The position numbers and the translations under genes were made by a program. Under the pieces are notes generated by a model that saw only the letters and a program-made list of their open reading frames with translations, was not told where the DNA came from and did no database searches. 41,119 nt of DNA from a virus (lineage: Duplodnaviria; Heunggongvirae; Uroviricota; Caudoviricetes), in IMG/VR virus record IMGVR_UViG_3300043410_001642, positions 1 to 41,119 of that record; one strand, given 5' to 3'. Below, in pieces: positions 5,437 to 30,250 of this stretch; positions within the stretch are counted from its first letter, which is position 1, and each line of letters opens with the position of its first letter.

Positions 5437-5712
5437 ATGAATAAATTAGAAATAGTAGATGAGGTATGTGCTGGTATGGCAATATTAGATTATTTTGATG
5501 ATGCTATTATTGGATATGATGTATCTACTAAAAGAATTGTATATGATTGGAAAATGATGGTTGATATTTTAATCAAAGACCATAGTTTGAACATTCAGGA
5601 AGCGGAAGAATATATCGAATATAATATTCTATCATTACACCTAACAAATGATAATGGTGATAATATAACTCCTATTATTTTTGATAAATTTTATTATGAT
5701 GATAAACTATAA
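5437..5712 (+). CDS. small acidic hypothetical protein
   Basis: 91-aa ORF tightly packed between helicase and methyltransferase; DDAIIG..IVYD..EA.EYIEYNI pattern. Confidence 0.65.
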   Translation: MNKLEIVDEVCAGMAILDYFDDAIIGYDVSTKRIVYDWKMMVDILIKDHSLNIQEAEEYIEYNILSLHLTNDNGDNITPIIFDKFYYDDKL

Positions 5713-6757
5713 TACTTTTGCAAAGTTTATAGAATGGGATGAATTGGATTTAGAATACGAAAGAGTTACTCAAAATATAAAAGATATAGAAAATGTTACA
5801 GAAGCATTGGATATAATCTTTAGATATCATAGAAGAAAAGGATTTCCACATTACCATTCTACAACCGATAGTAAGGTTAGTGATATGAAAGCACTATCCG
5901 AATTCGATGAATCTGGTATATTCAGAGATGGATATATTGACCAAACTATGCATTGCTTAGGTTTAGCATGGAGTTATTTTCCACATTGGGTAGATGTTCA
6001 ATGTGGTAATAGTAAAATGAGACCAATTGATTATTGGAATGATGATACTAAATTAAAAGAGATTATACGAAAGACTTGGAATTGGCATCTTAAGCATAGT
6101 GATGGTAAATTTACTTTAAATCGTTTAAGACAAAATTTTAAAATATACGGAGGTAATCAGACGGTTAGTAATTTCAGACCATCTGCTGCCAAATGGATTT
6201 ACAATACATATGGTGGAGAAACTATATGGGATATGAGTTGTGGATGGGGAGGAAGATTGATTGGATTCTTAACAAGTAATTGTAAAACATATATAGGAAC
6301 TGACCCATCGGAAAAAACTTACGAAGGGTTGTTACGATTAAATAAAGAATTGAATTTTTACGGAAAAAATGTCATACTCCATAAAATGGGTTCTGAAGTA
6401 TTTGTTCCGGAAAAAGAATCATTAGATTTATGTTTTACATCTCCTCCTTATTTTGATACTGAAAAGTATAGTGAAGAGGATACACAATCGTATAAAAAGT
6501 TTCCTACTCCTCATTTATGGGTAGAGGGATTCTTAAAACAAACTATGGCAAATTGTCATATTGGGTTGAAGAAAGAAGGAAAATTATTATTGAATATAGC
6601 AAATACGCCTAAGCATAAAGAAATAGAAACTGAAACTATTAGAGTAGCAAACGAAGTTGGATTTACTTTGGATAAAACTATAAAACTTGCACTATCTTCT
6701 ATTGCTGGAAAGGGTATTAAATATGAACCAATATTCATTTTTAGCAAGAAAAACTAA
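5696..6757 (+). CDS. amino (N4-C/N6-A) DNA methyltransferase-like protein 1
   Basis: DMSCGWGGRL (motif I), YIGTDP, FTSPPYFDTEKY (motif IV); start moved from TTG 5681 to ATG 5696. Confidence 0.8.
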   Translation: MMINYNTFAKFIEWDELDLEYERVTQNIKDIENVTEALDIIFRYHRRKGFPHYHSTTDSKVSDMKALSEFDESGIFRDGYIDQTMHCLGLAWSYFPHWVDVQCGNSKMRPIDYWNDDTKLKEIIRKTWNWHLKHSDGKFTLNRLRQNFKIYGGNQTVSNFRPSAAKWIYNTYGGETIWDMSCGWGGRLIGFLTSNCKTYIGTDPSEKTYEGLLRLNKELNFYGKNVILHKMGSEVFVPEKESLDLCFTSPPYFDTEKYSEEDTQSYKKFPTPHLWVEGFLKQTMANCHIGLKKEGKLLLNIANTPKHKEIETETIRVANEVGFTLDKTIKLALSSIAGKGIKYEPIFIFSKKN

Positions 6758-9966: not shown

Positions 9967-9998
9967 GTTGGAAATATCAGAAAAAAGTCGTATATTTG
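9967..9998 (+). promoter_or_regulatory. Bacteroidota-type promoter upstream of glycosyltransferase-polymerase pair
   Basis: GTTG(GAA) 9967-9970, 20-nt spacer, TATATTTG 9991-9998. Confidence 0.7.
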
Positions 9999-10021
9999 TT
10001 CCAACAAAAATTATAGAAAAA

Positions 10022-11128
10022 ATGGTGTTTTGGGAAGGTGCTAATAGTAGTTCAGCTAGAAAGGTATTAATTATACCTAACATAACAAACCTAAAGAATT
10101 TAGAAAAAGATTCATTCATAGATGTAATCTATAATCATATAATCTCCCTCAATAAGGAGGGGGATTATTTTTTTCACTTAATCCTACCAAAAGCAGTAGG
10201 TAAATTAAATTTACCAAATGTTCAACAACATTTAGTTGATATTTCTGGAAACATTCTTGCAATGAGAGTTGTGTTTCCAATTGAAATAATGAAACTATTA
10301 AAGAATTTGGAATATGATGTAGTTTATTCTCATATGCCAGATTGGTTTCAGGTAGCAAGATTCACACAAAAAGACATAGTTGGGTATTCTCATTGGTTTG
10401 AAATGAGAAGTTGTAATGCCGAAGACCGTTTGGCTAATTTTAGAAATATGGTTGTGGCTTTGTATCAAGTTACCCGAATGAAATGTTGTTATCTTAATAC
10501 AAAAGAACAAAAAGATAGAATCATTGAAGAGGCAAAAGAATGGTTTAATGATAATGTTATTAATACATTAGAAGAGAAATTAGTAGTTTGGAATTTAGGA
10601 GTTCCTTCTGATAAAATATTAGATAAACCTTCAGAGGAAAAAGAAAATGTAATTGTATTCAATCATAGATGTATTGCAAATAAAAACTATTCTGGATTTA
10701 TTAAATTGATGAAAGAATATAGAGAAAGAAGACAGGATTTCGTTGTATGGCTTCCTCAATTAAGTGATACTCCGGAAGAGAGTTGGATGGATAATTCTAA
10801 ATTGGATAAAGAAGAATACTATAAGAAACTACAAAAATGTAAAGTAGGGGTTCAGATGAGACAAACACATTATGGTTGGAGTGTAGCTGCAACTGATTGT
10901 ATGATGAACGGAACTCCTATGATATTTCAAGAATCTGATTGTTACAAAGAGATAGACCCAACGGCACATTTCTTCAAATACAAAAAGGATTTCTTTGATA
11001 TGTTGGATAAATTCTTAGATGATGAAAGTTATAGAAAGGAATATGAATTAAAGGCGTTAGAGAGAAGCATTCAACTTTCTAACAACGATGATAAAATGAT
11101 TAAAGAACTACATAAACAATTGAATTAG
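10022..11128 (+). CDS. GT-B fold glycosyltransferase (candidate DNA-modifying enzyme)
   Basis: C-terminal IVFNHR...KNY..F, YYKKLQKCKVG, GWSVAATDCMMNGTP resembles the GT-B donor-binding domain; start set to ATG 10022 because the TTG 9968 extension spans the promoter. Confidence 0.65.
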   Translation: MVFWEGANSSSARKVLIIPNITNLKNLEKDSFIDVIYNHIISLNKEGDYFFHLILPKAVGKLNLPNVQQHLVDISGNILAMRVVFPIEIMKLLKNLEYDVVYSHMPDWFQVARFTQKDIVGYSHWFEMRSCNAEDRLANFRNMVVALYQVTRMKCCYLNTKEQKDRIIEEAKEWFNDNVINTLEEKLVVWNLGVPSDKILDKPSEEKENVIVFNHRCIANKNYSGFIKLMKEYRERRQDFVVWLPQLSDTPEESWMDNSKLDKEEYYKKLQKCKVGVQMRQTHYGWSVAATDCMMNGTPMIFQESDCYKEIDPTAHFFKYKKDFFDMLDKFLDDESYRKEYELKALERSIQLSNNDDKMIKELHKQLN

Positions 11129-13662
11129 TGTATCAAAACATATATTTTCAGAGAAACAATAATACTATCCACATTTGGGATGATGTAAAGGGATATTTCA
11201 CAATGCCGTATCAACGATATGCATTCAAACCTGCACTCAATGGAGAATGGGAAAGTATTTACGGAGATAGATTAACAAAAGTTTTTAAGTATTCAAAAGA
11301 TGATGAAGGTTTATTTGAAACGGATGTGCCGGAAGTAACCCGAACATTAGTTGATTTATATACCAATTCGGATATTCCATCAAAGGGACATAAAATCTTA
11401 ACATTTGACATTGAGGTTGAAATGGAAACTGGAATGCCCGATACTGAAAAGGCATTGAATGAAATCACTTCTATTGCGATGCATGATTCGGTAGATGGTT
11501 CTCAATATGTTTTGATTTTAGATAAAGATAGAAAAGTTAGTAAAAGAGAAAAGGATAATATTTCAATTTTACCATTTGATACCGAACAAGAATTATTACA
11601 AAAATTTTTAACAATATATGAAAGTATTGCTCCAACGATTTTAACAGGTTGGAACATTGACTTCTTTGATATTCCTTATTTATATAATCGTTTGAAAAAT
11701 GTTGTAGGTGAAAGAAATGCAAAAAGATTATCACCTATTAAAGAAATGTTTTTCTCTCCATATAGAAAGAGATGGTTTATCGGAGGAGTATCTGCATTAG
11801 ACTACTTAACCCTTTATCAGAAATACAACTACAAAGAATTAGATAACTATCGTTTAGATACTGTCGCAAGAATTGAGTTGGGTAGAGGTAAAGTAGAATA
11901 TACCGGTAACTTAGATGAGTTATTCAAAAACGATATTGAAAAGTTTATTGAGTATAACTTAGAAGACGTTAGATTGATTGTAGATATGGATAAGAAACTA
12001 CAATTTATTGAATTAGTTAGAGGTATCTGTCATGCCGGTCATATTGCTTATGATGATTTTATCTTTGCAGGTAGAATTATGGAAGGAGCACTTTTATGTT
12101 TCTTAAGACAAAGAGGATTGGTAGCATCTAATAAAATGAAGAAAGAAGATTCAGATGCACGAATTGATGCGATGAGAGAAAGTGGAGGCATTGATGAAGG
12201 TGCAAAAGATGAGAAGTTTATCGGAGCATATGTAAAAGACCCGATTGTTGGAAAGCACGATTGGATTTATGACTTGGATTTAACATCACTATATCCATCA
12301 ATTATTATGAGTTTGAATATTTCACCGGAAACAAAGATGACAAAGGTGGAAGATTGGGATATTGAAAGATATATTAAAGGATTGGATGAAACATATACTA
12401 TTATGGGTAAGACCGTTAGTAGAGAAAGATTTCAACAATTCATAAAAGATAATGATTATGCTATTTCATCAAATGGTGTAATTTATAGAAGAGATAAAAA
12501 AGGATGTATTCCATCAATCTTAGAAGAGTGGTTTCAAAAGCGTGTGGAGTATCGTAAGTTGGAAAAGAAATATGGTGAGGAGGGTGATAAAGAACAATAT
12601 GCATTCTATGGTAAAAGACAATTGGTGCAAAAAATCTTATTAAACTCATTATATGGTGTATTGGGATTACCTTCATTCCGTTTCTATGATATTGATAATG
12701 CGGAAGCAGTAACTACAACAGGCCAGACAGTAATTAAAAATACTGCTAATATGTTGAATATCAAATACAATAAAGAATTGGGAACAAAGGATATAGATTA
12801 CAATATCTACATTGATACGGATTCAGTATTCTTTTCATCAGTTCCTTTATTAGACCATAGATTTCCTAATTGGAGAAATGAAGATGATGAAGAAATTGCC
12901 TTAAAAGTGGATGCTATTGCAGGTGAGAGCCAAAACTTCTTAAATAACTTCTATGATATGTTAGCATCAAAAGCATTTAACATTGATACACATAGATTGC
13001 AAATTAAAAAAGAGTTTGTTTCTAAGGCAGGATTTTGGGTAGCAAAGAAAAGATATGCACAATGGATTATTGCGGAGAATGGTATTAAATGTGACCAACT
13101 GCAAGTAAAAGGATTGGATGTGGTTCGTTCATCATTTCCTCAATCGTTCAAAGATTTTATGAAACAAACTTTGATTGATATTCTAAGAGGTGAGCAAAAG
13201 GAAACTATGGATGAAAAAATCATAACATTTAAATCATCTCTACCATTAGTAAAGCCGTATAACATTGCAAAGAGTAGTTCAGTTAAAGAATTATCTAAAT
13301 ATACACCTGCTAAAGGAGCAATGTTCCAATTTATGAAAGGAACTCCTGCCCATGTTAAAGCAGCATGGACTTACAATCAATTATTAAAACACTTTAATTG
13401 TGGTTTCAAATATTCACCTATGAAGAATGGTGATAAAATGAAATGGGTATATCTTAAACAAAACCCATTAGGATTGGAAACTATTGCATTTAAGGGTGCA
13501 GATGACCCGGAAGAAATTGAATCATTCGTAAAGAATTACATAGATTACGATATGATTTTTGAAAGAGAAATGCAGAATAAATTAGAGGATTTTTATAGAG
13601 CATTAAGTTGGGGAAATTTACAATTGAAAATCACTAAATCTGATAAATTTTTCTCATTTTAA
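11128..13662 (+). CDS. family B DNA polymerase (T4 gp43-like)
   Basis: Exo motifs FDIEVE, GWNIDFFDIPY, YNLEDV; pol motifs DLTSLYPS, KILLNSLYG, YIDTDS, KKRYA; GTG start overlaps upstream TAG. Confidence 0.96.
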   Translation: MYQNIYFQRNNNTIHIWDDVKGYFTMPYQRYAFKPALNGEWESIYGDRLTKVFKYSKDDEGLFETDVPEVTRTLVDLYTNSDIPSKGHKILTFDIEVEMETGMPDTEKALNEITSIAMHDSVDGSQYVLILDKDRKVSKREKDNISILPFDTEQELLQKFLTIYESIAPTILTGWNIDFFDIPYLYNRLKNVVGERNAKRLSPIKEMFFSPYRKRWFIGGVSALDYLTLYQKYNYKELDNYRLDTVARIELGRGKVEYTGNLDELFKNDIEKFIEYNLEDVRLIVDMDKKLQFIELVRGICHAGHIAYDDFIFAGRIMEGALLCFLRQRGLVASNKMKKEDSDARIDAMRESGGIDEGAKDEKFIGAYVKDPIVGKHDWIYDLDLTSLYPSIIMSLNISPETKMTKVEDWDIERYIKGLDETYTIMGKTVSRERFQQFIKDNDYAISSNGVIYRRDKKGCIPSILEEWFQKRVEYRKLEKKYGEEGDKEQYAFYGKRQLVQKILLNSLYGVLGLPSFRFYDIDNAEAVTTTGQTVIKNTANMLNIKYNKELGTKDIDYNIYIDTDSVFFSSVPLLDHRFPNWRNEDDEEIALKVDAIAGESQNFLNNFYDMLASKAFNIDTHRLQIKKEFVSKAGFWVAKKRYAQWIIAENGIKCDQLQVKGLDVVRSSFPQSFKDFMKQTLIDILRGEQKETMDEKIITFKSSLPLVKPYNIAKSSSVKELSKYTPAKGAMFQFMKGTPAHVKAAWTYNQLLKHFNCGFKYSPMKNGDKMKWVYLKQNPLGLETIAFKGADDPEEIESFVKNYIDYDMIFEREMQNKLEDFYRALSWGNLQLKITKSDKFFSF

Positions 13663-14461: not shown

Positions 14462-15409
14462 ATGAGTTTTTTTGAACAACAAGAAGAAGTAGTTCATTCA
14501 CTTTGGGTAGAAAAATATAGACCTACAAAGTTGGATGATTATGTAGGTAATGAAAATCTTAAAGCAAAGGTAAAGGGATATTTACAAAGTGGTGATATCC
14601 CTCACCTATTGTTTTATGGAAAAGCGGGAACGGGAAAAACAACATTGGCTAAACTGATTGTTAAAAACATTGAATGTGATGTTATGACAATCAATGCATC
14701 AGATGAAAATAATGTTGATACAGTTCGTAATAAAGTGAAAAACTTTGCAAGTGGTGTAGGATTTAAACCATATAAGGTTGTTATCTTAGATGAGTTTGAT
14801 TATATGACACCAAATGCACAGGCATTGTTAAGAAACTTAATGGAAACATTTTCTAAACATTGTAGATTCATTTTGACTTGTAATTACATTGAGAAAATCA
14901 TTTTACCGATTCAAAGTAGATGTCAATCTTTCCAAATCGTTCCACCTACTAAAAAAGATGTAGCGGTTCAAATCGCATCAATCTTAAAGAAAGAAGATAT
15001 ACAGTTTAATCCATCTGATTTAGTTCCTATTGTAGATGCTTATTATCCGGATATTCGCAAAATTATCAATACTTGCCAATTGGCTTGTGTAGATGGTGTT
15101 CTTAAAACGGATAGTGCTACAATTGTAGATACTGATTTTAGATTAAAGTTAGTTGAACTTTTAAAATCAAAAGACCAAATCAGAAATAAGTTTATGAACA
15201 TTAGACAATTGGTAGCTGATAATAGAGTTACTGATTTCACCGATACATATTCTTATTTATATGATAAGTTAGATGAGTATGCGACTGGAAATGTAGCACC
15301 TGTTATTCAGGCATTAGCTGAAGCAACTGCAAAAGATGCTTTAGTAGTTGATAAAGAAATTCAATTTATGGCTGGAATAATTGCGGTATTACAAATATTA
15401 AATAAGTAA
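14462..15409 (+). CDS. clamp loader AAA+ subunit (gp44/RFC small subunit-like)
   Basis: LWVEKYRP, PHLLFYGKAGTGKTT, INASDE, ILDEFD, RFILTCNY, IQSRC. Confidence 0.95.
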   Translation: MSFFEQQEEVVHSLWVEKYRPTKLDDYVGNENLKAKVKGYLQSGDIPHLLFYGKAGTGKTTLAKLIVKNIECDVMTINASDENNVDTVRNKVKNFASGVGFKPYKVVILDEFDYMTPNAQALLRNLMETFSKHCRFILTCNYIEKIILPIQSRCQSFQIVPPTKKDVAVQIASILKKEDIQFNPSDLVPIVDAYYPDIRKIINTCQLACVDGVLKTDSATIVDTDFRLKLVELLKSKDQIRNKFMNIRQLVADNRVTDFTDTYSYLYDKLDEYATGNVAPVIQALAEATAKDALVVDKEIQFMAGIIAVLQILNK

Positions 15410-15681
15410 TGAAACAATTATTAGTATATTTTTTTGTAATACTTTCACAATTAGCATTAGCTGTTTTTAAAGTATTAGAAATCAAATGGGTTGTTGAAAA
15501 TAATATTACAAAATCGGTTATACTATTTAATATACAAACATTATTTTGGATTGCTTCTACTGCATGGTCAGTTGATAGTTTTCTTAAAGGAGATTGGATT
15601 ACTATAATATTATTCTTATTATCAGGATCAATTGGTAAAATTGTTATTCTGAAATACTTCAAACGAAGAGAAACAATATGA
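15409..15681 (+). CDS. small multi-pass membrane protein
   Basis: 90 aa, about three hydrophobic segments; start overlaps upstream stop and stop overlaps downstream start. Confidence 0.6.
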   Translation: MKQLLVYFFVILSQLALAVFKVLEIKWVVENNITKSVILFNIQTLFWIASTAWSVDSFLKGDWITIILFLLSGSIGKIVILKYFKRRETI

Positions 15682-16445
15682 AAGAATTAGAATTTTTTGA
15701 TTTTGGTTATGAACAATTAGATGGTGATGTAAACTTACCTCCAATTGTAATTGAAGAAATTGAAGGAATATATGTAGTAAGAGAAGACCTTTTACCAGGA
15801 GGAACTAAAAGAAGAGCAGCATACAATTATGTTCTTCGTTATCCAAATATAAATAATTGGGTATATGCTTCACCAAGACAAGGATATGCACAATTAGCAT
15901 TGGCATATGTTTGTAGAGATTTAGGAAAGAAAGCAATTATATATGTTCCAGATAGTGATGAGAAAACTGATTTAACATTGGAAGCAGAAGCAGTGGGAGC
16001 AGAAGTAAATCAAGTTCCTAATGGTATGTTGACAGTAATTCAAAGAAGAGCAAAAGACAGAGTTAAAGGAAGCGAAGATACAACTGCTTTAATTCCATTT
16101 GGATTAGACCATCCAATTATTATTCAAACTATTGCAAACTTTGCTAAACAATTGCCCATAACACCAACTGAAGTGTGGAGTGTTATGAGTAGTGGAACTT
16201 TGAGTAGAGGATTACAAACTGCTTGGCCTGAAGCTAAGGTGTATGGTGTTCAGATTGGACATGGAACAACGGAAAGAGAAATGGGTAGAGCAATAACAAT
16301 TCCAAAAAGAATGCCTTTCCAAAAAGATTGTCCCATAAATGAAAGACCTCCGTTTCCTTCATCTTTGACTTATGATAGTAAAGCGTGGAAACATATTAAA
16401 GAAATGGCTTCACCCGGAGCTTTATTTTGGAATGTTGGGGCATAA
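15678..16445 (+). CDS. PLP-dependent fold type II enzyme (cysteine synthase/ACC deaminase/Trp synthase beta superfamily)
   Basis: VVREDLLPGGTKRR (Schiff-base Lys44), ASPRQGYAQLALA, SVMSSGTLSRG phosphate loop, LTYDSKAW, LFWNVG. Confidence 0.8.
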   Translation: MKELEFFDFGYEQLDGDVNLPPIVIEEIEGIYVVREDLLPGGTKRRAAYNYVLRYPNINNWVYASPRQGYAQLALAYVCRDLGKKAIIYVPDSDEKTDLTLEAEAVGAEVNQVPNGMLTVIQRRAKDRVKGSEDTTALIPFGLDHPIIIQTIANFAKQLPITPTEVWSVMSSGTLSRGLQTAWPEAKVYGVQIGHGTTEREMGRAITIPKRMPFQKDCPINERPPFPSSLTYDSKAWKHIKEMASPGALFWNVGA

Positions 16446-16457
16446 AAAAGATATAAA

Positions 16458-17687
16458 ATGTATTTAGATTATTTCGACAAATTTAAGGGAATGACTCCCT
16501 ATCTCCATATCGGTAAAGAAGAATGGACTTATATAAAAAGCACATTTGATATAAATGATGTTAAGGAAACATTAGCTGATATTCTAATGGAGTATCCTAT
16601 TCCTTATGCTGATATTAAAGAATCAGAAGCATTGGATGCATATAAGAGATTAAAAGGAACATGGTGGGCTGATATCCTTAAAGAAGGAGAATGGTTTCCG
16701 AGAAAAGCATCAGAAAGTAATTACCCTTTAACATTCAGAGGTAAACAACAATACTTCAGTAGAAATAATGTTGGTAATGAAGCATCTAATTTTTTTCAAC
16801 AAGCAAATCGTTGGAGTGTAGACGGAACAGTTTCTCCTGGGCCAAAAAGAACTTGGGAAACGAGAGAGTTTATGATTTCACTTATGGGTGGGTTATATAC
16901 TCTTAAGTTTGATGAAATTGATAGAAACTCATTGAGAACTTGTTTAGGGTTGAGAAAATACATTTGTGCACAATTTAAACCAAATGTGGCAAAAGCGTTA
17001 TATGATTATTTAAAAGTTGAAAATGTATTAGATTTTTCAGCAGGTTGGGGAGATAGAGTAGCAGGATTTTATGCAAGTGAATATGGAAAACATTATGTGG
17101 GGATTGACCCGAGAAAAGAAAATCATCCGATATACAACCAACAGGCTGAATGGTATGAAAAACATCGCACATTCTTTGAGGTTGATAAGAAAGCAGAATT
17201 CCATTGTTCTCCTGCGGAAGACTTTGATTTCACTCCATTCGAAAATCACTTTGATATTGTTTTCACATCACCCCCGTATTTCAATGTGGAGAGATATTCT
17301 TACGATGATACTCAAAGCTGGGTTAGGTATAAATCCATAGATGCTTGGAATGAAATGTTTTTACATAAAGTAATTCATAACCTATGGCCAACGATACGCA
17401 AAGGGGGTTATTTGGCAGTTAATATTGCGGATGTATATGCTAAATCAAATGATAGAGAAAAGGGATATGTGGAGATTACAAACCCAATGAATGATTATAT
17501 CAAAACATTAGGTGCTGAATATGAAGGATGTTTGGGCATGGAAATGGCCAAAAGACCTGGTTCTGCAGGAGCAGGTGCAATCATTGAAGGTGATGAAGGA
17601 AGATATACCGAAGAAGCAATTGCAAAAGCGGAAGAAGCAAAAGGTAAAAGATTTTGTGAACCAATTTGGATATGGAAAAAGCTATAA
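16458..17687 (+). CDS. amino (N4-C/N6-A) DNA methyltransferase-like protein 2
   Basis: QFKPNVAK, DFSAGWGDRV (motif I), YVGIDP, FTSPPYFNVERY (motif IV); paralog of 5696-6757. Confidence 0.8.
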   Translation: MYLDYFDKFKGMTPYLHIGKEEWTYIKSTFDINDVKETLADILMEYPIPYADIKESEALDAYKRLKGTWWADILKEGEWFPRKASESNYPLTFRGKQQYFSRNNVGNEASNFFQQANRWSVDGTVSPGPKRTWETREFMISLMGGLYTLKFDEIDRNSLRTCLGLRKYICAQFKPNVAKALYDYLKVENVLDFSAGWGDRVAGFYASEYGKHYVGIDPRKENHPIYNQQAEWYEKHRTFFEVDKKAEFHCSPAEDFDFTPFENHFDIVFTSPPYFNVERYSYDDTQSWVRYKSIDAWNEMFLHKVIHNLWPTIRKGGYLAVNIADVYAKSNDREKGYVEITNPMNDYIKTLGAEYEGCLGMEMAKRPGSAGAGAIIEGDEGRYTEEAIAKAEEAKGKRFCEPIWIWKKL

Positions 17688-18580
17688 AAAAAGTAATACT
17701 ATGGGGGTGTTCAATCGGATATGGGTTGAACGCTGATAAAGATAAAATATTTGGGCAACGAATAGCCGATTGGCTAGAAGTTCCTTTTGAAAATATATCC
17801 ATATCAGGAGCAGGAAACATTGTAGGAGCAAATGTGATATTGAATAAACCAATTGATTTTTTCAAAGATAGTTTAGTTTTATTTCAAACTACATACTTTG
17901 AAAGACAGATTGATAAGGATATGATACCAAATCCGTTCTTTGATAATCGTTTCTATAAAGAAGTATTTACAAATACATTTCAAATAGACGAATTTGAAAA
18001 GGAATATAAAACAAAAGCCGATATTTTACGAATAGATGATTGGGTTGGTTATTGGACTGATTACAAACCATTTTATGATAGAAAGTATTGGAACTATAAA
18101 CAAGATTTTGACCATAACAAATGGGTATCATATTTAAGAGAATTGTTCAAACAAAACTCTTATCATTTATATTTGGTTCATCAATGGTTTAAGAAAAATA
18201 ATATACAACATTTATTCTTTGATATTCCTGTTCCAATGATGGGATATAAATTAAAATATAGAGATTACCAATTATCGGATTGTGAATTTTATTCAAAAGC
18301 AACAATTAGATTTTTGACAGAAAGAAGTGATGAAAAAAATTCATTTTATGATAAATTCAAAGATGAAGATTTCTTTTTCATAGATGAAATAGATGAAAAG
18401 AATAAAGTTTCAGATATTCTTATAGAACCAATTTATAGCGGAACTGATACAACAATATGGAAAGAATTCCTATTGCCGGATAGACCATATGGAACACCGG
18501 ATAATTCACATCCAAATGAAGAGGGTCATAGAAAAGTATTTGAGATATTACAACAAAATATAAAACAAAAAATAAATTAA
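17666..18580 (+). CDS. SGNH-hydrolase-like hypothetical protein
   Basis: ILWGCSIGYG, NISISGAGN, C-terminal DNSHPNEEGH; start could be 17672. Confidence 0.55.
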   Translation: MDMEKAIKKVILWGCSIGYGLNADKDKIFGQRIADWLEVPFENISISGAGNIVGANVILNKPIDFFKDSLVLFQTTYFERQIDKDMIPNPFFDNRFYKEVFTNTFQIDEFEKEYKTKADILRIDDWVGYWTDYKPFYDRKYWNYKQDFDHNKWVSYLRELFKQNSYHLYLVHQWFKKNNIQHLFFDIPVPMMGYKLKYRDYQLSDCEFYSKATIRFLTERSDEKNSFYDKFKDEDFFFIDEIDEKNKVSDILIEPIYSGTDTTIWKEFLLPDRPYGTPDNSHPNEEGHRKVFEILQQNIKQKIN

Positions 18581-18585
18581 AAGTT

Positions 18586-18927
18586 ATGGCACAAATTTTA
18601 GGAAACCAACAACAACCTCAACAACCAAAATTAGATTGGTCACAGGCACAAGATTTTACTTGTTCTCATTGTGGGAGTGAATATTTCATTAATGCAGTTA
18701 TGGTAAAGAAATTTTCAAAGTTCGTTACCGGAACATCTAATGATGCGGTAATTCCAGTTGATATTTTATTATGTGGAAATTGTGGTAAACCAGTAGATGA
18801 ATTAATTCCACATCAATTAAGAAAGAAGCCTGAAGAGCAACCACAAACTGAAACAACTTTACAAACTGAAGCTCCACAAACTGAAGGAGGAGATGTTCAG
18901 AAATCTTCATTGACATTAGACCTATAA
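18586..18927 (+). CDS. zinc-ribbon-like hypothetical protein
   Basis: CSHC...CGNC pairs flanked by Q/P-rich and QTE-repeat tails. Confidence 0.65.
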   Translation: MAQILGNQQQPQQPKLDWSQAQDFTCSHCGSEYFINAVMVKKFSKFVTGTSNDAVIPVDILLCGNCGKPVDELIPHQLRKKPEEQPQTETTLQTEAPQTEGGDVQKSSLTLDL

Positions 18928-18938
18928 ATTATTGGAAT

Positions 18939-19511
18939 ATGAAAGTAATGTTTGTTTGTGCGTTAAAAGAGGAATCGGAAGGATATGATACATTATTTGA
19001 TTTCCCAATAGTTCACACAGGTGTTGGTAAGATAAATGCAGGATATAAAACCGCTTTGGGTATTATTCAACATAAACCCGATTTAGTATGTAACTTTGGA
19101 AGTTGTGGTAGTTTCACAATGGAAAAGGGTATGTTATTAAAGGTTAAAGATGTATATAATGGGGATATGGATGCGGAGCCGTTAGTTCCGTATTCTATCA
19201 CTCCGTTTGATACCGATGGTGATTACTTAACCATTGAGAATGAAGGAGTTAGCTGCTTTACGACGGAAACCTTTATTAGTAAGGAAAAGGTTCAAAATTT
19301 CTCCCCTAAAAAGTTGGAATTATTAAATAAATGTAGTATATTTGAAATGGAATTATACTCAATAACAAGAGTTTGTAAAGAGTTTAAGATACCTATTGTT
19401 TCTTACAAATGGGTTTCAGATGATGGTAACTTAAACGATTGGCAAGATAATTGTAAAATAGGGTATAGTAAATTTAAATTAGAATTCTATAACAATTATA
19501 TCGCATCTTAA
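18939..19511 (+). CDS. MTA/SAH nucleosidase-like (PNP/UDP phosphorylase superfamily)
   Basis: ALKEE, TGVGKINA, NFGSCG, FEME, KWVSD match MTAN motifs (AMxEE, GIGKVNA, NxGxAG, EME, RxxSD). Confidence 0.8.
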   Translation: MKVMFVCALKEESEGYDTLFDFPIVHTGVGKINAGYKTALGIIQHKPDLVCNFGSCGSFTMEKGMLLKVKDVYNGDMDAEPLVPYSITPFDTDGDYLTIENEGVSCFTTETFISKEKVQNFSPKKLELLNKCSIFEMELYSITRVCKEFKIPIVSYKWVSDDGNLNDWQDNCKIGYSKFKLEFYNNYIAS

Positions 19512-19975
19512 TGGCTAAGACACTATTTGATCACTTAAACGCAATTACGAAAGACCAAGATCCTAAGTATTTTGATAAGTTATCAGAAGAAGATAAAAAG
19601 ACTTGGAGTAATTATATGGTTCATAGGTTTTTATCTATGGATTATGATTTCGTAGAAGCTATTGCAGATTTACAACCATTGACACAAACAATGGAGCCTA
19701 AATTGTTTTATCTTTTATTGTTAGGAGTTATTCCTCCTGGCAAAAGATACTTACGATATGTAAAGGGTAAATCAGAAGAAACTACAAATGAAAAATTAGT
19801 AGAACTATTACAAATAGAATATAATTGTTCTAAGAATACTGCAATAGATTACTATAATATTCTGAATGCTATAAAAGAAGGTCCAGAATATTTTGAATAC
19901 CTTAAAGGAAAATATGGAGAGGTAGAAAAAGAAAAAGGTAAAAAAAGTTCTAAACCAAAAACAAAAAAGAAATAA
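19511..19975 (+). CDS. clamp loader small subunit (T4 gp62-like)
   Basis: LFDHLNAI, WSNYMVHRFLSM, FYLLLL..IP.GKRYLRYVK, LQIEYNCS...A.DY pattern typical of gp62-like proteins. Confidence 0.65.
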   Translation: MAKTLFDHLNAITKDQDPKYFDKLSEEDKKTWSNYMVHRFLSMDYDFVEAIADLQPLTQTMEPKLFYLLLLGVIPPGKRYLRYVKGKSEETTNEKLVELLQIEYNCSKNTAIDYYNILNAIKEGPEYFEYLKGKYGEVEKEKGKKSSKPKTKKK

Positions 19976-21418: not shown

Positions 21419-22807
21419 ATGAGTAATAAGAAAAAAACAATCTTACTTTTATCGGATGATTTAAGAATGCATAGTGGTATTGCTACTATGTCAAAAGAAA
21501 TAGTTTTAGGAACGCTTGATAAATACAATTGGATTCAAGTGGGAGCAGCAGTTCAACATCCTGAAGCTGGAAAAATAATTGATGTATCGGAAGATGCGAG
21601 AAAAGTAAGCGGGGTAGAAGATGGTAGTGTAATAATTTATCCTTACAATGGATATGGAGATGCTGATTTAATTAGAACATTGTTGAATAAACATGAAATT
21701 GATGCAATCCTACACTTTACTGACCCTAGATATTGGATTTGGTTATATGATATCGAACATGAAATCAGACAAACTACTCCGATATTCTTCTATCACATTT
21801 GGGACGATTTACCAGACCCTTGGTATAATAGAGATTACTATGAAAGTTGTGATTGGATTGGTTGTATTTCTAAACAAACTTATGGTATTACCAAAAGAGT
21901 TGGCCAATTGGATAACAACAAAACATGGCAACCTAGAGAGGATTGGCAAGTAAGTTATGTTCCTCATGGTGTATCTGATTTATACAAACCATTGGATACG
22001 ATTAATTTAGATTTGAAACAAAAATTATTTGGTTCAAACAATTATGAATATATCTTATTCTGGTCTAATAGAAATATCAGAAGAAAACAACCTGCTGATG
22101 TAATATGGGCTTTTCAAAAATTCATTGATGGATTGCCAGAAGAAAAGAAAAAGAAAGTAATGTTGTTAATGCACACTCAACCCGTAGATGAAAATGGAAC
22201 GGATTTGATTGCAGTAGCAGGTAGAATAGCACCTAATGCGGAGATAAAATTCTCTACTAATAAATTATCAACCGAACAATTGAATGAGTTGATGAGTTTG
22301 TGTGATGTATCGGTTAATATTTCAGGTAACGAAGGATTTGGTTTAACAACTGCCGAAGGAATTATGGCAGGTATGCCTTCTATACTTTTAGTAACCGGTG
22401 GATTGCAAGACCAATGTGGATTCAAATTAAATGGAAAATATTTAACTGCTGAAGATTATGTTAAGATTGGTTCTTTGCATGATTGGAGAGAATGGGAAGG
22501 AAAAGTAGAACATGGTGAATGGGTTAAACCTTTATGGGCAAAAGCTCAATCAATGAATGGTTCAGTTCCTACTCCATATATTATTGATGATAAAGTGGAT
22601 GTGGTTGAATTAGCAGAAGCTATGAGATATTGGTATGATATCCCAAAAGAAAAAAGAAAAGAAATGGGTTTAAAAGGTAGAGAATATTTCTTATCAGAAA
22701 ACGGATTCTATGCAAAAAGAATGTGTGATACAATGGCAGAAGGAATGGAAACTGCATTTAAAAATTGGAAACCTAAAGAAAGATTTGACGTATATAAAAT
22801 TAAATAA
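21419..22807 (+). CDS. GT-B (GT4-like) glycosyltransferase
   Basis: LLLSDD....SG, VPHG, FWSNRNIRRKQP, NEGFGL..AEG. Confidence 0.85.
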   Translation: MSNKKKTILLLSDDLRMHSGIATMSKEIVLGTLDKYNWIQVGAAVQHPEAGKIIDVSEDARKVSGVEDGSVIIYPYNGYGDADLIRTLLNKHEIDAILHFTDPRYWIWLYDIEHEIRQTTPIFFYHIWDDLPDPWYNRDYYESCDWIGCISKQTYGITKRVGQLDNNKTWQPREDWQVSYVPHGVSDLYKPLDTINLDLKQKLFGSNNYEYILFWSNRNIRRKQPADVIWAFQKFIDGLPEEKKKKVMLLMHTQPVDENGTDLIAVAGRIAPNAEIKFSTNKLSTEQLNELMSLCDVSVNISGNEGFGLTTAEGIMAGMPSILLVTGGLQDQCGFKLNGKYLTAEDYVKIGSLHDWREWEGKVEHGEWVKPLWAKAQSMNGSVPTPYIIDDKVDVVELAEAMRYWYDIPKEKRKEMGLKGREYFLSENGFYAKRMCDTMAEGMETAFKNWKPKERFDVYKIK

Positions 22808-22809
22808 TT

Positions 22810-23109
22810 ATGAGTTTTGATGAATTAATTGAAAATGTATCAGGATGGGCAGCTGATAAAGATATTTTAAAAAAAGAAAATGCCCCTAAACAATTATTAA
22901 AGGTTTTAGAAGAAGTAGGTGAAACTGCGGGAGCATTATTAAAATCTAAAGATGAAGAAATTAAAGATGGTATTGGTGATTCATTTGTAACACTTATCAT
23001 TTTGGCTAAACAATTAGGTTTAGAACCTGCGGATTGTTTAGAAGCAGCATGGAATGAAATTAAAGATAGAACAGGTAAGACTGTTAATGGTGTATTTGTA
23101 AAAAACTAA
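22810..23109 (+). CDS. MazG-like nucleotide pyrophosphohydrolase
   Basis: QLLKVLEEVGE, IKDGIGD..VTLIILA, AWNEIKDR. Confidence 0.85.
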   Translation: MSFDELIENVSGWAADKDILKKENAPKQLLKVLEEVGETAGALLKSKDEEIKDGIGDSFVTLIILAKQLGLEPADCLEAAWNEIKDRTGKTVNGVFVKN

Positions 23110-23111
23110 TT

Positions 23112-24347
23112 ATGAGCAAACCCTTTTTATTATATCAAGCACCTATTTCTACCAGAAGTGGTTATGGGGATCATGCTAGAGATTTGTTATTCTCATTAAG
23201 AGAATTGAACATATATGATATTAAAATAGTTTCAACTCGTTGGGGAAATACTCCAATGGATCAGTTAAATCCTGAAAATGAATTTGATAAATGGGCAATT
23301 GATAATATAGTATCTGAAATTCATCAACAACCCGATGTGTATATTCAAATGACAGTGCCAAATGAATTTAGAAAAGTTGGTAAATATAACATAGGTGTTA
23401 CTGCGGGTATCGAAACGACCGTTATCCCTAAAGATTGGGTAGATGGTTGTAATAGAATGGATTTAGTAATTGCAACATCCGAACATTCTAAGGAAGGAAT
23501 ATTAGGGACAGTATATACTGAAAAAAATAGAGAAACCCAACAAATTATTGCAGAACATAGAGTTACAACTCCGGTTGAAGTTTTATTTGAAGGAGCTGAT
23601 TACAATGAAATAAAAGGAATTGATAAATTAGATAAAGTAAAAGAAAATTTTGCATTTCTATTTGTAGGGCATTGGTTGCAAGGTGATACATATCATGATA
23701 GAAAAGATGTTGGTGGTATGATTCAAACTTTCTTATCAGCATTTGCTAAAACAAAAGGTGAAAAACCTGCATTGATTTTGAAAACATCTTCTGCTGGATT
23801 TAGTATTAGAGATAGAGAAGAAATGTTAAGAAAGATTGATAGAATTGCTTCGACTGTAAGAAGTGATGCTTCAATATATCTTTTACATGGTGATTTATCA
23901 AACGAAGATATGTGGAAATTATACAATGATGATAAAATCATAGCTATGATTTCGTTTACCCATGGTGAGGGATTTGGTAGACCTTTATTAGAGTTCAGTT
24001 TGACAGGAAAACCTGTAATTGCATCTAATTGGAGTGGACATACAGATTTCTTAACACAAAAGGGTTCAGTATTATTAGATGGTGAGTTAAAGAATGTTCA
24101 TGATTCTGCGGCAAATCAATTTTTAATGAAAGAATCTCAATGGTTTTATGTAAATTATTCTAATGCGGCTATTAAATTAACTGAAGTATTTAATAATTAT
24201 GATAAATACCTTTCTGAATCTACAAAAATGGGAAATGAAAATAAAATTAAATTTTCTCATAAAAAAATGACTGAAGAATTAGGTAAGTTGTGTAGTAAAT
24301 ACATTAAGGTTGCAAAGCATGTTGATTTAGTATTACCTGAATTTTAA
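23112..24347 (+). CDS. GT-B (GT4-like) glycosyltransferase
   Basis: TRSGYG, FLFVGHW, RKDVG, LILKT, GEGFGRPLLE..LTGKPVIASNWSGH. Confidence 0.85.
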   Translation: MSKPFLLYQAPISTRSGYGDHARDLLFSLRELNIYDIKIVSTRWGNTPMDQLNPENEFDKWAIDNIVSEIHQQPDVYIQMTVPNEFRKVGKYNIGVTAGIETTVIPKDWVDGCNRMDLVIATSEHSKEGILGTVYTEKNRETQQIIAEHRVTTPVEVLFEGADYNEIKGIDKLDKVKENFAFLFVGHWLQGDTYHDRKDVGGMIQTFLSAFAKTKGEKPALILKTSSAGFSIRDREEMLRKIDRIASTVRSDASIYLLHGDLSNEDMWKLYNDDKIIAMISFTHGEGFGRPLLEFSLTGKPVIASNWSGHTDFLTQKGSVLLDGELKNVHDSAANQFLMKESQWFYVNYSNAAIKLTEVFNNYDKYLSESTKMGNENKIKFSHKKMTEELGKLCSKYIKVAKHVDLVLPEF

Positions 24348-24354
24348 ATAACAA

Positions 24355-24948
24355 ATGGGAGCACATCAATTATATACACCTAAATGGACTAATTTAATTA
24401 CCGGTTTCAATGAGATTCCTCATGGAATGATGAAGCCTGGTAATTTTTACAAAATATCCGTATATCGTTATGCTGACCCAGAGAAAACAAAAGTATTGTC
24501 AGGTGTGGATACTGCTTACATATTTTTCATAGGTAGATATATCACAAATGGTAAAGTTCACTTCTCTGCTTTAAAATTAAAGCATGTTAGTCCAGAGAAA
24601 TTCTTTGATTCAATAAGAACGGCTATGGATAGAATTGATGAGAAAAAAATTGATGAGAGTATTGAATTTAGATTGTTATTAAAACATTTTCCAAAAGATG
24701 GAAGACCTTTATTTAATTTAATAAAGAGAGTTCCGATTATATACCATGATAATTATAGAGAATATTTAATGACTTCCATTAAAAATGTTTCACTTATTGA
24801 TATAGATAAGCAATATTTGAAAAGTAAATTTTTACCTGGATATAATAAGAATAAAAGAGTATTGGAAAGAAAAGAAGATTTGAATATAAAACAACCTGTT
24901 GTTAAAAAGAATCCACCTCCATCTGATAAAAAAATTAAAGATAAATAG
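24355..24948 (+). CDS. hypothetical protein, basic
   Basis: 197-aa ORF in operon context, no family confidently recognised. Confidence 0.6.
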   Translation: MGAHQLYTPKWTNLITGFNEIPHGMMKPGNFYKISVYRYADPEKTKVLSGVDTAYIFFIGRYITNGKVHFSALKLKHVSPEKFFDSIRTAMDRIDEKKIDESIEFRLLLKHFPKDGRPLFNLIKRVPIIYHDNYREYLMTSIKNVSLIDIDKQYLKSKFLPGYNKNKRVLERKEDLNIKQPVVKKNPPPSDKKIKDK

Positions 24949-24950
24949 TT

Positions 24951-25178
24951 ATGACATCAAAAGAATTTGTTATTTGGACTAAAGGTTTTGTTGCCGGTTC
25001 TAATAATTTCAATTTAACACCTGCTGGGTGGCAAGAATTAAAAGATAAATTGGGGGAAGTAAATGATGAAGACCCTAATAAATTATTAAAAGATTATGTA
25101 AATCCATATGGAGGTAAATATACAACTACTTCTACTATACCACCCTATACAACCGGTGGAAATGATATAAAAGATTAA
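24951..25178 (+). CDS. hypothetical protein
   Basis: 75-aa ORF with 1-2 nt gaps to neighbours; FVIWTKGFV..W..LKDKL pattern. Confidence 0.6.
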   Translation: MTSKEFVIWTKGFVAGSNNFNLTPAGWQELKDKLGEVNDEDPNKLLKDYVNPYGGKYTTTSTIPPYTTGGNDIKD

Positions 25179-25179
25179 G

Positions 25180-25803
25180 ATGAAAATAAGTTACGCAATA
25201 ACAGTTTGCAATGAGTTAAATGAGATAACTTCTCTTATTAACTTTTTGTTACCAAGAATAGATAAAGAGGATGAGGTTGTAATCCAATATGATTCCGAAT
25301 CCGTTACAAAAGAAGTAAAGGATTATTTGAATGTAATAGGAGATTTACAAAAGCAAATAAATGTAATAACATTTCCTCTAAACAAAGATTTTGCATCATT
25401 TAAGAATAACTTAAAAGGAAATTGTAATGGCGATTATATTTTCCAAATTGATGCAGATGAAGAACCTTCCGAGATTTTATTAGAAAGATTAAAAAGAATA
25501 TTAGAAGCAAACAATGTGGATATTGTGTTTGTTCCTAGAGTAAATACTGTCAATGGTTTAACATCCGACCATATTCAAAAATGGGGATGGAACTTAAATG
25601 ATAAAGGTTGGGTGAATTGGCCTGATTATCAAACAAGAATTTATAGAAATACTCCTGAAGTAGAATGGTATGGGAAGGTTCATGAAAGAATAACTGGATA
25701 TAATACATTTAGTAACTTTCCTGCCGAAGAATCATACTCTTTATATCACCACAAAGAAATAGAGAGACAAGAAAAACAAAACAATTTTTACAATAATATA
25801 TGA
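25180..25803 (+). CDS. GT2 family glycosyltransferase
   Basis: ISYAITVCNE, FASFKN, IFQIDADE (DxD), WPDYQ.RIY, GKVHE. Confidence 0.85.
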   Translation: MKISYAITVCNELNEITSLINFLLPRIDKEDEVVIQYDSESVTKEVKDYLNVIGDLQKQINVITFPLNKDFASFKNNLKGNCNGDYIFQIDADEEPSEILLERLKRILEANNVDIVFVPRVNTVNGLTSDHIQKWGWNLNDKGWVNWPDYQTRIYRNTPEVEWYGKVHERITGYNTFSNFPAEESYSLYHHKEIERQEKQNNFYNNI

Positions 25804-26771
25804 AAAAGAAAAGAGCACTTATCACCGGTATAAACGGAATGGATGGTTCGCATTTAGCAGACTTCCTTTTGGAAAGAGGTGATTACGAAGTATTTGGTAT
25901 TGAAAGAAGAAAGGCGAATTATTATTCACCTAATATAGAACACTTAAATGGTAAGATATCTCTAATAAAAGGAGATTTATCAGACCAAAACTCTTTGTTA
26001 AGAGCTATTAAAGACTGTGAACCACATGAAGTATATAACTTAGGGGCACAATCATTTGTAGGTGAAAGCTGGACAATGCCAGAACAAACATCTGATATCA
26101 CAGGTTTAGGAGCATTAAGAGTGTTGGAAGCCATTAGAGAATATGGTAATAAGAATACTAAATTCTATCAGGCATCTTCTTCTGAAATGTTTGGTAAGAA
26201 AGGTGGTGTAGCAAACGAAGATACTACATTCTATCCTTGTTCTCCATATGGTGTATCTAAATTATATGCACATTGGATTACTAAAAATTATAGAGAATCT
26301 CATGGTATGTTTGCAGTAAGTGGTATCTTATTTAATCATGAATCTGAAAGAAGAGGGCATGAATTTGTAACTCGTAAGATTTCAGATGGTGTTGCAAGAA
26401 TTCATTTAGGATTAGCAGACCATATCTCATTGGGTAATTTAGAATCTAAAAGAGATTGGGGTTATGCACCTGATTATGTTGAAGGTATGTGGTTAATGAT
26501 GCAACAAGAGAAATCTGATGATTATGTATTAGCAACCGGTGAAACACATTCAATTAGAGAATTCTTAGATGAAGCGTTCAAACATATTGGAATTGATAAT
26601 TGGTCTAAATATATTAAGGTAGACCCTAGATTTATCAGACCGGTTGAGGTTAGTTACTTATTGGGAGATGCGAGTAAAGCTAAAGAAAAATTAGGATGGC
26701 AACCAAAAACATCCTTTAAGGATTTAGTGAAAATTATGGTTCAAAATGATATCAAATTATTAAAGAAATAA
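25800..26771 (+). CDS. gmd: GDP-mannose 4,6-dehydratase
   Basis: ALITGINGMDGSHL, YNLGAQSFV, FYQASSSEMFG, SPYGVSK (YxxxK), GILFNHESERRG, RDWG, RPVEV..LLGD. Confidence 0.93.
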   Translation: MKKKRALITGINGMDGSHLADFLLERGDYEVFGIERRKANYYSPNIEHLNGKISLIKGDLSDQNSLLRAIKDCEPHEVYNLGAQSFVGESWTMPEQTSDITGLGALRVLEAIREYGNKNTKFYQASSSEMFGKKGGVANEDTTFYPCSPYGVSKLYAHWITKNYRESHGMFAVSGILFNHESERRGHEFVTRKISDGVARIHLGLADHISLGNLESKRDWGYAPDYVEGMWLMMQQEKSDDYVLATGETHSIREFLDEAFKHIGIDNWSKYIKVDPRFIRPVEVSYLLGDASKAKEKLGWQPKTSFKDLVKIMVQNDIKLLKK

Positions 26772-26773
26772 TT

Positions 26774-27715: not shown

Positions 27716-27723
27716 GAAATAAT

Positions 27724-28956: not shown

Positions 28957-28957
28957 T

Positions 28958-29581
28958 ATGAACAAACTATTAAATCAAAAAGAACATCAAAATTATCAAT
29001 CTGCTTTGCAATTGATGAAAGAACATTCTCCTGAAATGTTAGCAAGAAAAATTCCAGAAGCGTGTATTCAACAGGCATTTACATTGCAAACTGCTTTGGA
29101 TTTAACTCCAAAGGGAGGATTAGTATTATCTGCTGGAAGCTGGGAAGATACTGCTACTGAAAGTTTGAAAAAATTAGGATATGTTGTAACGGATGTAGAC
29201 CCGATGATTAATTCGGATCTTAAAACTTATTTTGATAACAACCCACAGCTACATAATAAAATTGATTCAGTAGTATCAACATCAGTTATAGAGCATGTTC
29301 AAAATGACGAAGAATTTATAGATTGTATTTGTAAATTATTAAAGAAGGGTGGATATGGAATTGTAACAATGGATTACAACAATGATTATTTAAATGGTAA
29401 TGTAACCAAACCAAACGAAGATGTTAGGTTATATACTGAATATGATTTGAGAGTGAGATTGAATTCGGTATTAGAACAAAATGGTTGTGAATTATTGAAC
29501 GCAGATTATAGTGGAACAAATGATTTCTGCTATGCTGGTCATTGGTACACATTTGCTACATTTGTATTTAAGAAAAAATAA
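28958..29581 (+). CDS. class I SAM-dependent methyltransferase
   Basis: VLSAGSWED motif I-like, STSVIEHV, LLKKGGYGIVT. Confidence 0.75.
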   Translation: MNKLLNQKEHQNYQSALQLMKEHSPEMLARKIPEACIQQAFTLQTALDLTPKGGLVLSAGSWEDTATESLKKLGYVVTDVDPMINSDLKTYFDNNPQLHNKIDSVVSTSVIEHVQNDEEFIDCICKLLKKGGYGIVTMDYNNDYLNGNVTKPNEDVRLYTEYDLRVRLNSVLEQNGCELLNADYSGTNDFCYAGHWYTFATFVFKKK

Positions 29582-29584
29582 TAA

Positions 29585-30247: not shown

Positions 30248-30250
30248 TTT

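Follow-up and report, generated by a model that had tools for sequence, protein, structure and literature searches.

In Pseudomonas phage M6 and Salmonella phage ViI, gp52 and gp226 decarboxylate amino acids that are attached to thymine in DNA, and they require a free primary amine (PMC8989533). In Synechococcus phage S-B43, CmoA, CmoX, and CmoY lead to carboxymethylcytosine: CmoX is a C5 methylase that uses carboxy-S-adenosylmethionine (Cx-SAM) from CmoA, and this DNA methylase fold then feeds CmoY, a homologue of the asparagine synthetase AsnB (PMC12783734). During wybutosine synthesis in tRNA, TYW2 (a class I fold) takes the 3-amino-3-carboxypropyl (acp) group from S-adenosylmethionine (SAM), TYW4 follows, and both ends of acp are capped (PMC3386263). 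Here we compare these systems with a locus in a sequence of 41,119 nucleotides (the window) from an uncultured, aquatic tailed phage. The window covers the first 41 kb of a linear virus record of 141,368 bases, IMGVR_UViG_3300043410_001642, that is about 74% complete. The locus encodes a pyridoxal phosphate (PLP) enzyme, a protein with a SAM-dependent amino-methyltransferase fold (MT1), and a nucleosidase-like protein. The pairing of the PLP gene with the transferase is real and conserved, and it is uncharacterised in the literature that we searched (which covered few subscription papers); we found no report there of such a pair, nor of phage DNA with acp or aminopropyl bases. We propose, tentatively and at rather less than an even chance, that acp is transferred from SAM to the amine of a DNA base and that the PLP enzyme then decarboxylates it to give an aminopropyl base. 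Some kind of non-methyl, SAM-derived modification seems probable, if variants that alter the cofactor first or that act on RNA are included.

The + strand of the window is a T4-like replication block, with genes for ssb, recA, helicase, ribonucleotide reductase, polymerase B, clamp, and clamp loader. The PLP gene, MT1, and the nucleosidase gene are all on this strand, between the genes for the large (14462-15409) and small (19511-19975) subunits of the clamp loader. An earlier reading of the sequence alone (the sequence-only reading) had placed the trio inside the replication operon, with the PLP gene 12 nucleotides upstream of an SPPY methyltransferase-like gene and the nucleosidase 1.25 kb downstream, and these positions hold (see the table below). 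The PLP gene overlaps the stop of the preceding gene, and the nucleosidase gene starts 1251 nucleotides past MT1 and abuts the small clamp-loader gene.

The PLP enzyme and its link to the transferase family

The PLP protein matches PALP (PF00291, E = 1.4e-9) and phrog_7093 (E = 8e-42). Its profile aligns end to end with M6 gp52, which is in the same PHROG (hhalign 98%, E = 1.9e-13; 27% identity), and its Schiff-base lysine, K44, is invariant and aligns with K36 of gp52. The best matches from cultured phages (41-45% identity) are PLP domains of Erythrobacter phages R6L and ZS04 and Microcystis phage Mae-JY30, which lie within or next to "DNA methylases"; the M6/YuA gp52 family follows (27%). 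By homology only, decarboxylation appears to be the best-supported chemistry. The sequence-only reading had offered deamination or decarboxylation of the adduct, and the kinship with gp52 favours the latter.

The link between the PLP gene and the transferase family exceeds chance. We counted neighbours for 28 distinct PLP sequences that are flanked on both sides by 3.5 kb of DNA or more: a transferase lies within 3.5 kb of the PLP gene in 25 and within 50 nucleotides in 13 (the phages are related, so these counts are not independent). A glycosyltransferase lies within 3.5 kb in 12 of the same 28, and a nucleosidase in 10. The neighbourhood check that the sequence-only reading had called for thus found conserved linkage, and also fusions and insertions. 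Among 20 longer PLP homologues, 12 are transferases of the ParB type in which the PLP domain interrupts the stretch from motif I to motif IV (the P0123 type, which includes Erythrobacter phages R6L and ZS04), and six are C-terminal transferase-PLP fusions from the window's own GWGxR subfamily (P0121, P0134-36, P0139, and P0140). The ParB-transferase fusions adjoin terminase genes. In mycobacteriophage Vincenzo, the ParB-transferase gp1 overlaps the PALP protein gp2. In bacterial assemblies, a member of the transferase family is adjacent or fused to the PLP gene in 11 of 18 loci. The paper on R6L labels the fused gene merely a methylase.

A predicted complex of MT1 and the PLP protein scored 0.58, as against 0.00 for the best control; the runs shared at least 89% of contacts, and the partner's pLDDT (predicted local distance difference test) was at least 86. 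In calibration, 58 of the 80 solved complexes passed the mark, as did 2 of the 110 mismatches; passing scores of 0.60 or less came from only 7 of the 80 and from both mismatches. A pass at this score would be wrong more often than right unless the pair was likely beforehand. We take the predicted complex as weak support.

Other loci show further arrangements. Two cultured bacteria, Comamonas denitrificans CCUG 44425 and Acidovorax sp. Leaf78 (loci L334 and L339), have adjacent transferase and PLP genes. A cellular contig (L319:7340-11000) encodes a 680-residue transferase-PLP fusion flanked by two unknown genes, with an integrase and a Type ISP restriction enzyme nearby; possibly this is a defence-island use of the module. 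The commonest neighbour of the PLP gene outside the transferase family is an HD phosphohydrolase (54 of 88 loci; for example, L053:14682-15425), which we did not find in this contig.

Exchange of the PLP gene for AsnB and GNAT

Relatives whose MT1 is 88-96% identical to the window's have no PLP gene between the gene for a 90-residue membrane protein and MT1. Instead, the slot holds genes for a 485-residue asparagine-synthetase-like protein and a GNAT protein. This contig has no AsnB-like ligase. The same alternation recurs in another lineage, in a second slot that follows thioredoxin (L003 and L103 versus L101-L113). Across 40 whole records, this PLP gene is present in 11, a close AsnB in 16, and a distant AsnB in 5, and none combines this PLP gene with an AsnB. 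The 16 records with a close AsnB also lack the second PLP subfamily. We had considered that PLP and AsnB might always be exclusive, but the 5 records with a distant AsnB encode a PLP protein of another, 278-residue subfamily, so the exclusivity is limited to this PLP subfamily versus AsnB plus GNAT. The sole complete relative with neither cassette, G012, has no member of the transferase family and no nucleosidase either.

The transferase does not follow this exchange. The cassette states interleave on the MT1 tree, where 5 of 5 informative independent pairs go in opposite directions (p = 0.0625), and within one lineage MT1 is 99-100% identical across cassette types. Among 48 long homologues of MT1, 7 have a clear PLP domain at their end and a separate 10 have GNAT and/or ATP-grasp domains; none has both kinds. 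(Many of the long homologues carry FtsJ, mRNA-capping, or PCIF1 domains and, judging by these, are probably from giant viruses.)

The AsnB-like protein keeps the N-terminal cysteine, SGGxDS, E348 (as D), D351, E352, Y357, K376, and K449, and it has the substitutions D384N and R387T (E. coli numbering). We take D384 and R387 of E. coli AsnB to be the residues that bind aspartate, and their replacement suggests a substrate other than aspartate. The nearest cultured homologue sits in a CmoA/CmoX/CmoY-type cluster.

These tailoring partners would act on amines or carboxylates, and a methylated base would offer neither. The recurring logic, in which either a PLP enzyme or an amine acylase with a carboxylate-activating ligase accompanies the same transferase, would suit an adduct with both an alpha-amine and an alpha-carboxylate. 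The exchange of the PLP gene for AsnB and GNAT supports such an adduct independently. If the donor is plain SAM, then the group that would fit is acp. The exchange and the parallel alternation in the long fusions raised our estimate for acp transfer followed by decarboxylation to its present, still tentative, level.

The region upstream of the trio differs with the cassette as well. Among the closest relatives, the GT-B glycosyltransferase gene that overlaps the start of the polymerase gene is in every PLP-type locus that covers the region and in none of the AsnB-type loci, and in marine relatives a GT-B gene adjoins the PLP gene. A GT-B gene overlapping the polymerase start is also found in G012 and G016, both of which lack the PLP gene and the transferase. 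The glycosyltransferase is a probable further part of the modification pathway. In the polymerase, 43 alignment columns are diagnostic of the cassette, as against 3 for the lineage; all 43 fall within residues 65-638, and the grouping by cassette gives one clade with support of 100. This grouping, which rests on two lineages, is rejected by the clamp (approximately unbiased test, p-AU = 0.028) and by MT1 (p-AU = 1e-5). The co-segregation of the polymerase with the cassette favours a DNA target, but it links the PLP enzyme no less to the glycosyltransferase than to MT1; the polymerase may also be hitchhiking with the adjacent glycosyltransferase gene.

A proposed pathway and its rivals

We propose a two-step hypermodification of bases after replication. 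MT1, or its paralogue MT2 elsewhere in the window, would flip out a base and hold its exocyclic amine at the SPPY motif. It would then transfer the acp arm of SAM rather than the methyl group and release methylthioadenosine (MTA). Next, as homology to gp52 suggests, the PLP enzyme would engage the free alpha-amine of the acp on the DNA in a Schiff base and remove CO2, which would leave an N-(3-aminopropyl) base. Further decoration of this base may come from the co-inherited glycosyltransferase. Relatives with the other cassette would finish the same intermediate by AsnB-like amidation of the carboxylate and GNAT acylation of the amine. The likely purpose would be protection against host nucleases.

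In this scheme, the nucleosidase would only clear MTA or S-adenosylhomocysteine (SAH). It matches PNP_UDP_1 (PF01048, E = 7e-10) and keeps E12, M137-E138, and D161, which we take to be the catalytic residues. It falls below the cut-off of every NCBIfam nucleosidase or MTA/SAH model (TIGR01704: 35.7 bits versus 73.8). MTA/SAH nucleosidases accept both substrates. Judging by its sequence, the protein looks intact and fits heavy use of SAM, and it cannot discriminate MTA from SAH. Of 6 near-complete relatives, the 5 that have the transferase, and only these, also have the nucleosidase, at 7-69 kb from MT1; in four complete relatives its distance from the transferase is 13-69 kb. It is about 97% identical with and without the PLP gene. 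In the sequence-only reading the nucleosidase would clear MTA; with dual specificity, such loose linkage (10 of 28 in the neighbour count), and its presence with both cassettes, we drop it as evidence for MTA release. The wider proposal of a non-methyl modification derived from SAM has nevertheless gained circumstantial support, because the linkage is conserved, the PLP enzyme is a homologue of gp52, and the cassette is exchanged for AsnB and GNAT.

Several observations weigh against the acp pathway. No residue separates linked from unlinked members of the transferase family, and many members keep the same motifs, with the motif-I arginine among them, but have no tailoring partner nearby, as in Bacteroides DAC16, Vibrio 2.058.O, Mammaliicoccus PMS2, Listeria B054, and HCTV-2. 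A marine clade of 32 MT1 sequences has no tailoring partner within the fetched loci, which are mostly short contigs. (Partnerless members could leave acp untrimmed, or they could simply methylate.) The best structural matches of the MT1 model are tRNA N2-methylguanine (m2G) methylases, with Trm11 at the top. Among the closest relatives, the PLP gene tracks the glycosyltransferase and the polymerase, not MT1. Marine relatives have the gene order transferase (a different paralogue), PLP, GT-B, TAGT; no TAGT gene was found in this contig. A third cassette beside MT1 (L329:6206-12205) combines a thymidylate-synthase (TS)-like protein of 232 residues, an AsnB-like protein of 501 residues, and a PLP protein of 278 residues that is 27% identical to M6 gp52; the AsnB-PLP pair is in 5 records, with the TS-like gene where seen. 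Finally, the pair test on the MT1 tree used rows chosen for a single cassette, and p is 0.125 if unlabelled rows are included.

If MT1 is instead an ordinary amino-methylase that makes N4-methylcytosine (m4C), N6-methyladenine (m6A), or m2G, then the PLP enzyme with the glycosyltransferase, or AsnB with GNAT, would form a separate pathway with an unrecognised precursor enzyme. The two would share a replication-linked island, and the nucleosidase would remove SAH. This explanation would suit an MT1 that is indifferent to the cassette while the PLP gene follows GT-B and polymerase, the GT-B and TAGT genes after the PLP gene in marine phages, the TS-like cassette, the many stand-alone family members, and the intact canonical motifs I-IV. 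It leaves unexplained why PLP domains are inserted in transferases or fused to their C-termini, and why the pair turns up in siphoviruses and bacterial loci where no glycosyltransferase was seen. Also, transferases are more frequent near the PLP gene than glycosyltransferases are (25 versus 12 of 28), and our searches for M6-type, TS-fold, CmoA, and C5-methylase genes found no enzyme that would make the precursor. We consider plain methylation somewhat unlikely. Alternatively, the PLP enzyme might decarboxylate or otherwise alter free SAM, so that MT1 transfers aminopropyl as spermidine synthase does, and AsnB with GNAT would make another SAM analogue. The step from CmoA to CmoX is a precedent (PMC12783734), the insertion of a PLP domain beside the SAM-binding motif would suit channelling, and the complex prediction lends it weak support. 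Also, five records, including this contig, have no pyruvoyl SAM decarboxylase. The characterised PLP homologues, however, work on adducts bound to DNA, and MT1 proteins that are 99-100% identical would need quite different SAM analogues for each cassette type. This order of events seems quite unlikely.

Another alternative is that the same or similar chemistry acts on RNA (phage or host tRNA, or transcripts). The MT1 model (pLDDT 90) has as its top folds Trm11 and TrmN (Z = 15.6, root-mean-square deviation 2.6-2.9, about 180 residues aligned), with Trm14 (Z about 15) and METTL5 also among the top matches, and there is no DNA methylase within the top 50 matches. Long homologues are fused to FtsJ, mRNA-capping, and PCIF1 domains, and acp is so far known from RNA. 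Against this, the Z scores are tied with those of unrelated O-methyltransferases and we saw no THUMP-like RNA-binding match. Furthermore, the genes lie between clamp-loader subunits, the ParB fusions lie beside terminase genes, and the polymerase co-segregates with the cassette. We regard an RNA target as very unlikely. (The polyamine aminopropyltransferase BpsA is at rank 49 of the fold matches, with Z = 13.2, inside a tie of class I folds. No known acp transferase is among the listed matches, and kinship may still exist. Sequence searches of the PDB with MT1 gave nothing useful.) It is highly improbable that the PLP enzyme is metabolic, acting on free amino acids as 1-aminocyclopropane-1-carboxylate (ACC) deaminase, D-cysteine desulfhydrase, or Ser/Thr dehydratase do, and sits beside a plain methylase by chance. 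The nearest solved folds of its model are indeed ACC deaminase and D-cysteine desulfhydrase (Z = 23.5, root-mean-square deviation 2.9, 248 residues aligned), and the database label is "threonine dehydratase." But the DNA decarboxylases gp52 and gp226 have the same label and fold match (for gp226, see PMC8989533). Also, NCBIfam models of metabolic enzymes score far under their cut-offs, the protein is at least 70 residues shorter, and it is repeatedly fused to the transferase.

Taken more broadly, acp transfer followed by tailoring would mean that a widespread family of viral "methylases" puts acp on a nucleobase amine. Such a base, acp or aminopropyl, would be a first for DNA and a common handle finished by a PLP decarboxylase, by AsnB with GNAT, or by GNAT with ATP-grasp, and the polymerase and glycosyltransferase here would be matched to the PLP version. 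We think this is possible, although we would not yet bet on it. If so, hundreds of viral genes annotated as m4C or m6A methylases write a bulky mark derived from an amino acid, the acp chemistry of SAM reaches DNA and not only RNA, and there is a new class of anti-restriction modification. The natural exchange is a clean experiment, with a near-identical transferase, two tailoring sets, and predicted mass shifts of +101, +57, +100, and +142 Da. Related pairs in cultured phages (Vincenzo gp1-gp2, Erythrobacter R6L, and Microcystis Mae-JY30) open the idea to liquid chromatography-mass spectrometry of virion DNA. Even if the idea fails, these abundant aquatic phages are still likely to have an unrecognised modification pathway that includes a PLP enzyme and a glycosyltransferase.

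Neighbouring genes and comparison with known systems

Features of the locus, with positions in the window unless marked as genome positions
Feature	Position	Strand	Basis or remark
PLP fold-type II enzyme, M6 gp52 family, 255 aa	15678..16445	+	PALP and phrog_7093; swappable slot
MT1, SPPY class I SAM-dependent amino-methyltransferase fold, 409 aa	16458..17687	+	N6_N4_Mtase, phrog_12517; candidate acp transferase
SGNH-like protein, between MT1 and nucleosidase	17666..18580	+	sequence motifs
Zinc-ribbon protein	18586..18927	+	kept beside clamp loader in the phage group; not part of the module
MTA/SAH nucleosidase-like protein, 190 aa	18939..19511	+	PNP_UDP_1; putative accessory clearance of by-product
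GT-B (GT4-like) glycosyltransferase, overlaps polymerase start	9968..11128	+	presence only in PLP-type among closest relatives
Family B DNA polymerase	11128..13662	+	residues 65-638 group by cassette type
MT2, second transferase paralogue, 30% to MT1 over core	5681..6757	+	possible alternative partner of PLP enzyme
Third transferase paralogue	genome 102991-104001

The sequence-only reading had overlooked MT2, the third paralogue, and the glycosyltransferase. The SGNH-like protein is one of many paralogues in the genome and occurs with both cassette types; it is probably outside the module. Many relatives have MT1 in tandem with a second copy (about 53% identical; L086:11209-12438), which the window lacks. 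Full-length structural homologues of MT1 in BFVD come from pithoviruses, Satyrvirus, and Salmon gill poxvirus; the Satyrvirus protein (699 residues, annotated as glutathione synthase) is probably an ATP-grasp fusion. Residues 309-318 of the polymerase are DFIFAGRIME, where distant relatives keep (F)xYSSKYLE. G012 and G016 have a 406-residue phrog_19197 gene between the clamp and the clamp loader. In relatives, a small gene lies upstream of ssb (L301:8087-8458), at a position just past the start of this contig. Positions 21419-32923 of the window hold a sugar-modification cluster, with a GT4 pair, a GT2, and genes resembling GDP-mannose dehydratase, NDP-sugar methyltransferase, and FkbM. A promoter scan gave hits at chance level (82 versus 71 +/- 9).

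We also looked for the donor pathways of the described systems. A tblastn search with M6 gp51, gp53, and gp54 gave no match, whether in the contig or in DNA upstream in two relatives, and an M6-type amino acid:DNA transferase and 5-hydroxymethyldeoxyuridine (5-hmdU) kinase are probably absent. Likewise, neither the contig nor the upstream DNA that we searched in close relatives yielded a radical SAM gene or a thymidylate-synthase-like one. A TS-fold dUMP hydroxymethylase (PF00303) is absent from the contig and from the complete relatives G001 and G002, and positive controls were detected. CmoA (TIGR00740) is absent from 22 records, except for a marginal 15-bit match in G012. The C5 methylase family (PF00145) is found in none of the 22, and MT1 has SPPY, not PC. 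We considered whether the AsnB of relatives might be part of a Cmo system and ruled this out, as the genomes searched have neither CmoA nor a C5 methylase. Streptomyces phage TurkishDelight was a candidate for a cultured phage of the AsnB type, but its genes are like CmoX, CmoY, and CmoA: locus L350:3127-8155 encodes two ParB proteins, a C5 methylase, a glutamine-type AsnB, and a CmoA-like protein. TurkishDelight is instead a cultured example of the glutamine-dependent CmoY group, which PMC12783734 could not express.

How does the locus compare with known systems? The thymidine hypermodification genes of M6 (gp51-54) and ViI (gp226) include a homologous PLP enzyme, which presumably decarboxylates a base-bound alpha-amino acid. 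Here, the partner is a SAM-dependent amino-methyltransferase fold, and we found no 5-hmdU kinase, amino acid:DNA transferase, radical SAM isomerase, or dU hydroxymethylase. As in the CmoA/CmoX/CmoY system, where a non-methyl carboxylate group is amidated by an AsnB-type ligase, a glutamine-type homologue of AsnB is encoded next to MT1 in relatives of this phage; however, Cmo has no PLP or GNAT step, and its CmoA and C5 methylase were not found here. TYW2 with TYW4 (and also TapT and Tsr3) parallels the proposal in that a class I Rossmann fold draws acp from SAM and both ends of acp are later capped. TYW2 modifies a C7 acceptor in tRNA and has no SPPY, and we saw no sequence similarity and no preferential structural similarity to MT1. 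The nucleosidase shares its fold family and the catalytic Glu, Met-Glu, and Asp with Pfs, but it is shorter, at 190 residues, and scores below the NCBIfam cut-offs.

MT1 resembles the (D/N/S)PPY amino-methyltransferases, which include phage m4C/m6A orphans and Trm11/TrmN/Trm14. It matches N6_N4_Mtase (PF01555, E = 1.5e-5, slightly below the cut-off) and phrog_12517, it has motif I (DFSAGWGDR), then motif IV (TSPPYF) and ExY, in that order, and its fold matches theirs with Z of about 15. It stands apart in its SPPYFxxExY, in its own N-terminal region of 170 residues, and in an invariant arginine after motif I (R200; 43 of 43 motif matches). (R200 is a candidate for the basic residue that, in an acp transferase, would hold the carboxylate of SAM close to the acceptor. 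We considered this arginine as a mark of the tailored members and rejected it, as stand-alone members carry it too.) The family is set further apart by its recurrent PLP, GNAT, AsnB, and ATP-grasp partners. Overall, the system works like the tailoring in M6 and ViI and also like Cmo, and it is a member of neither.

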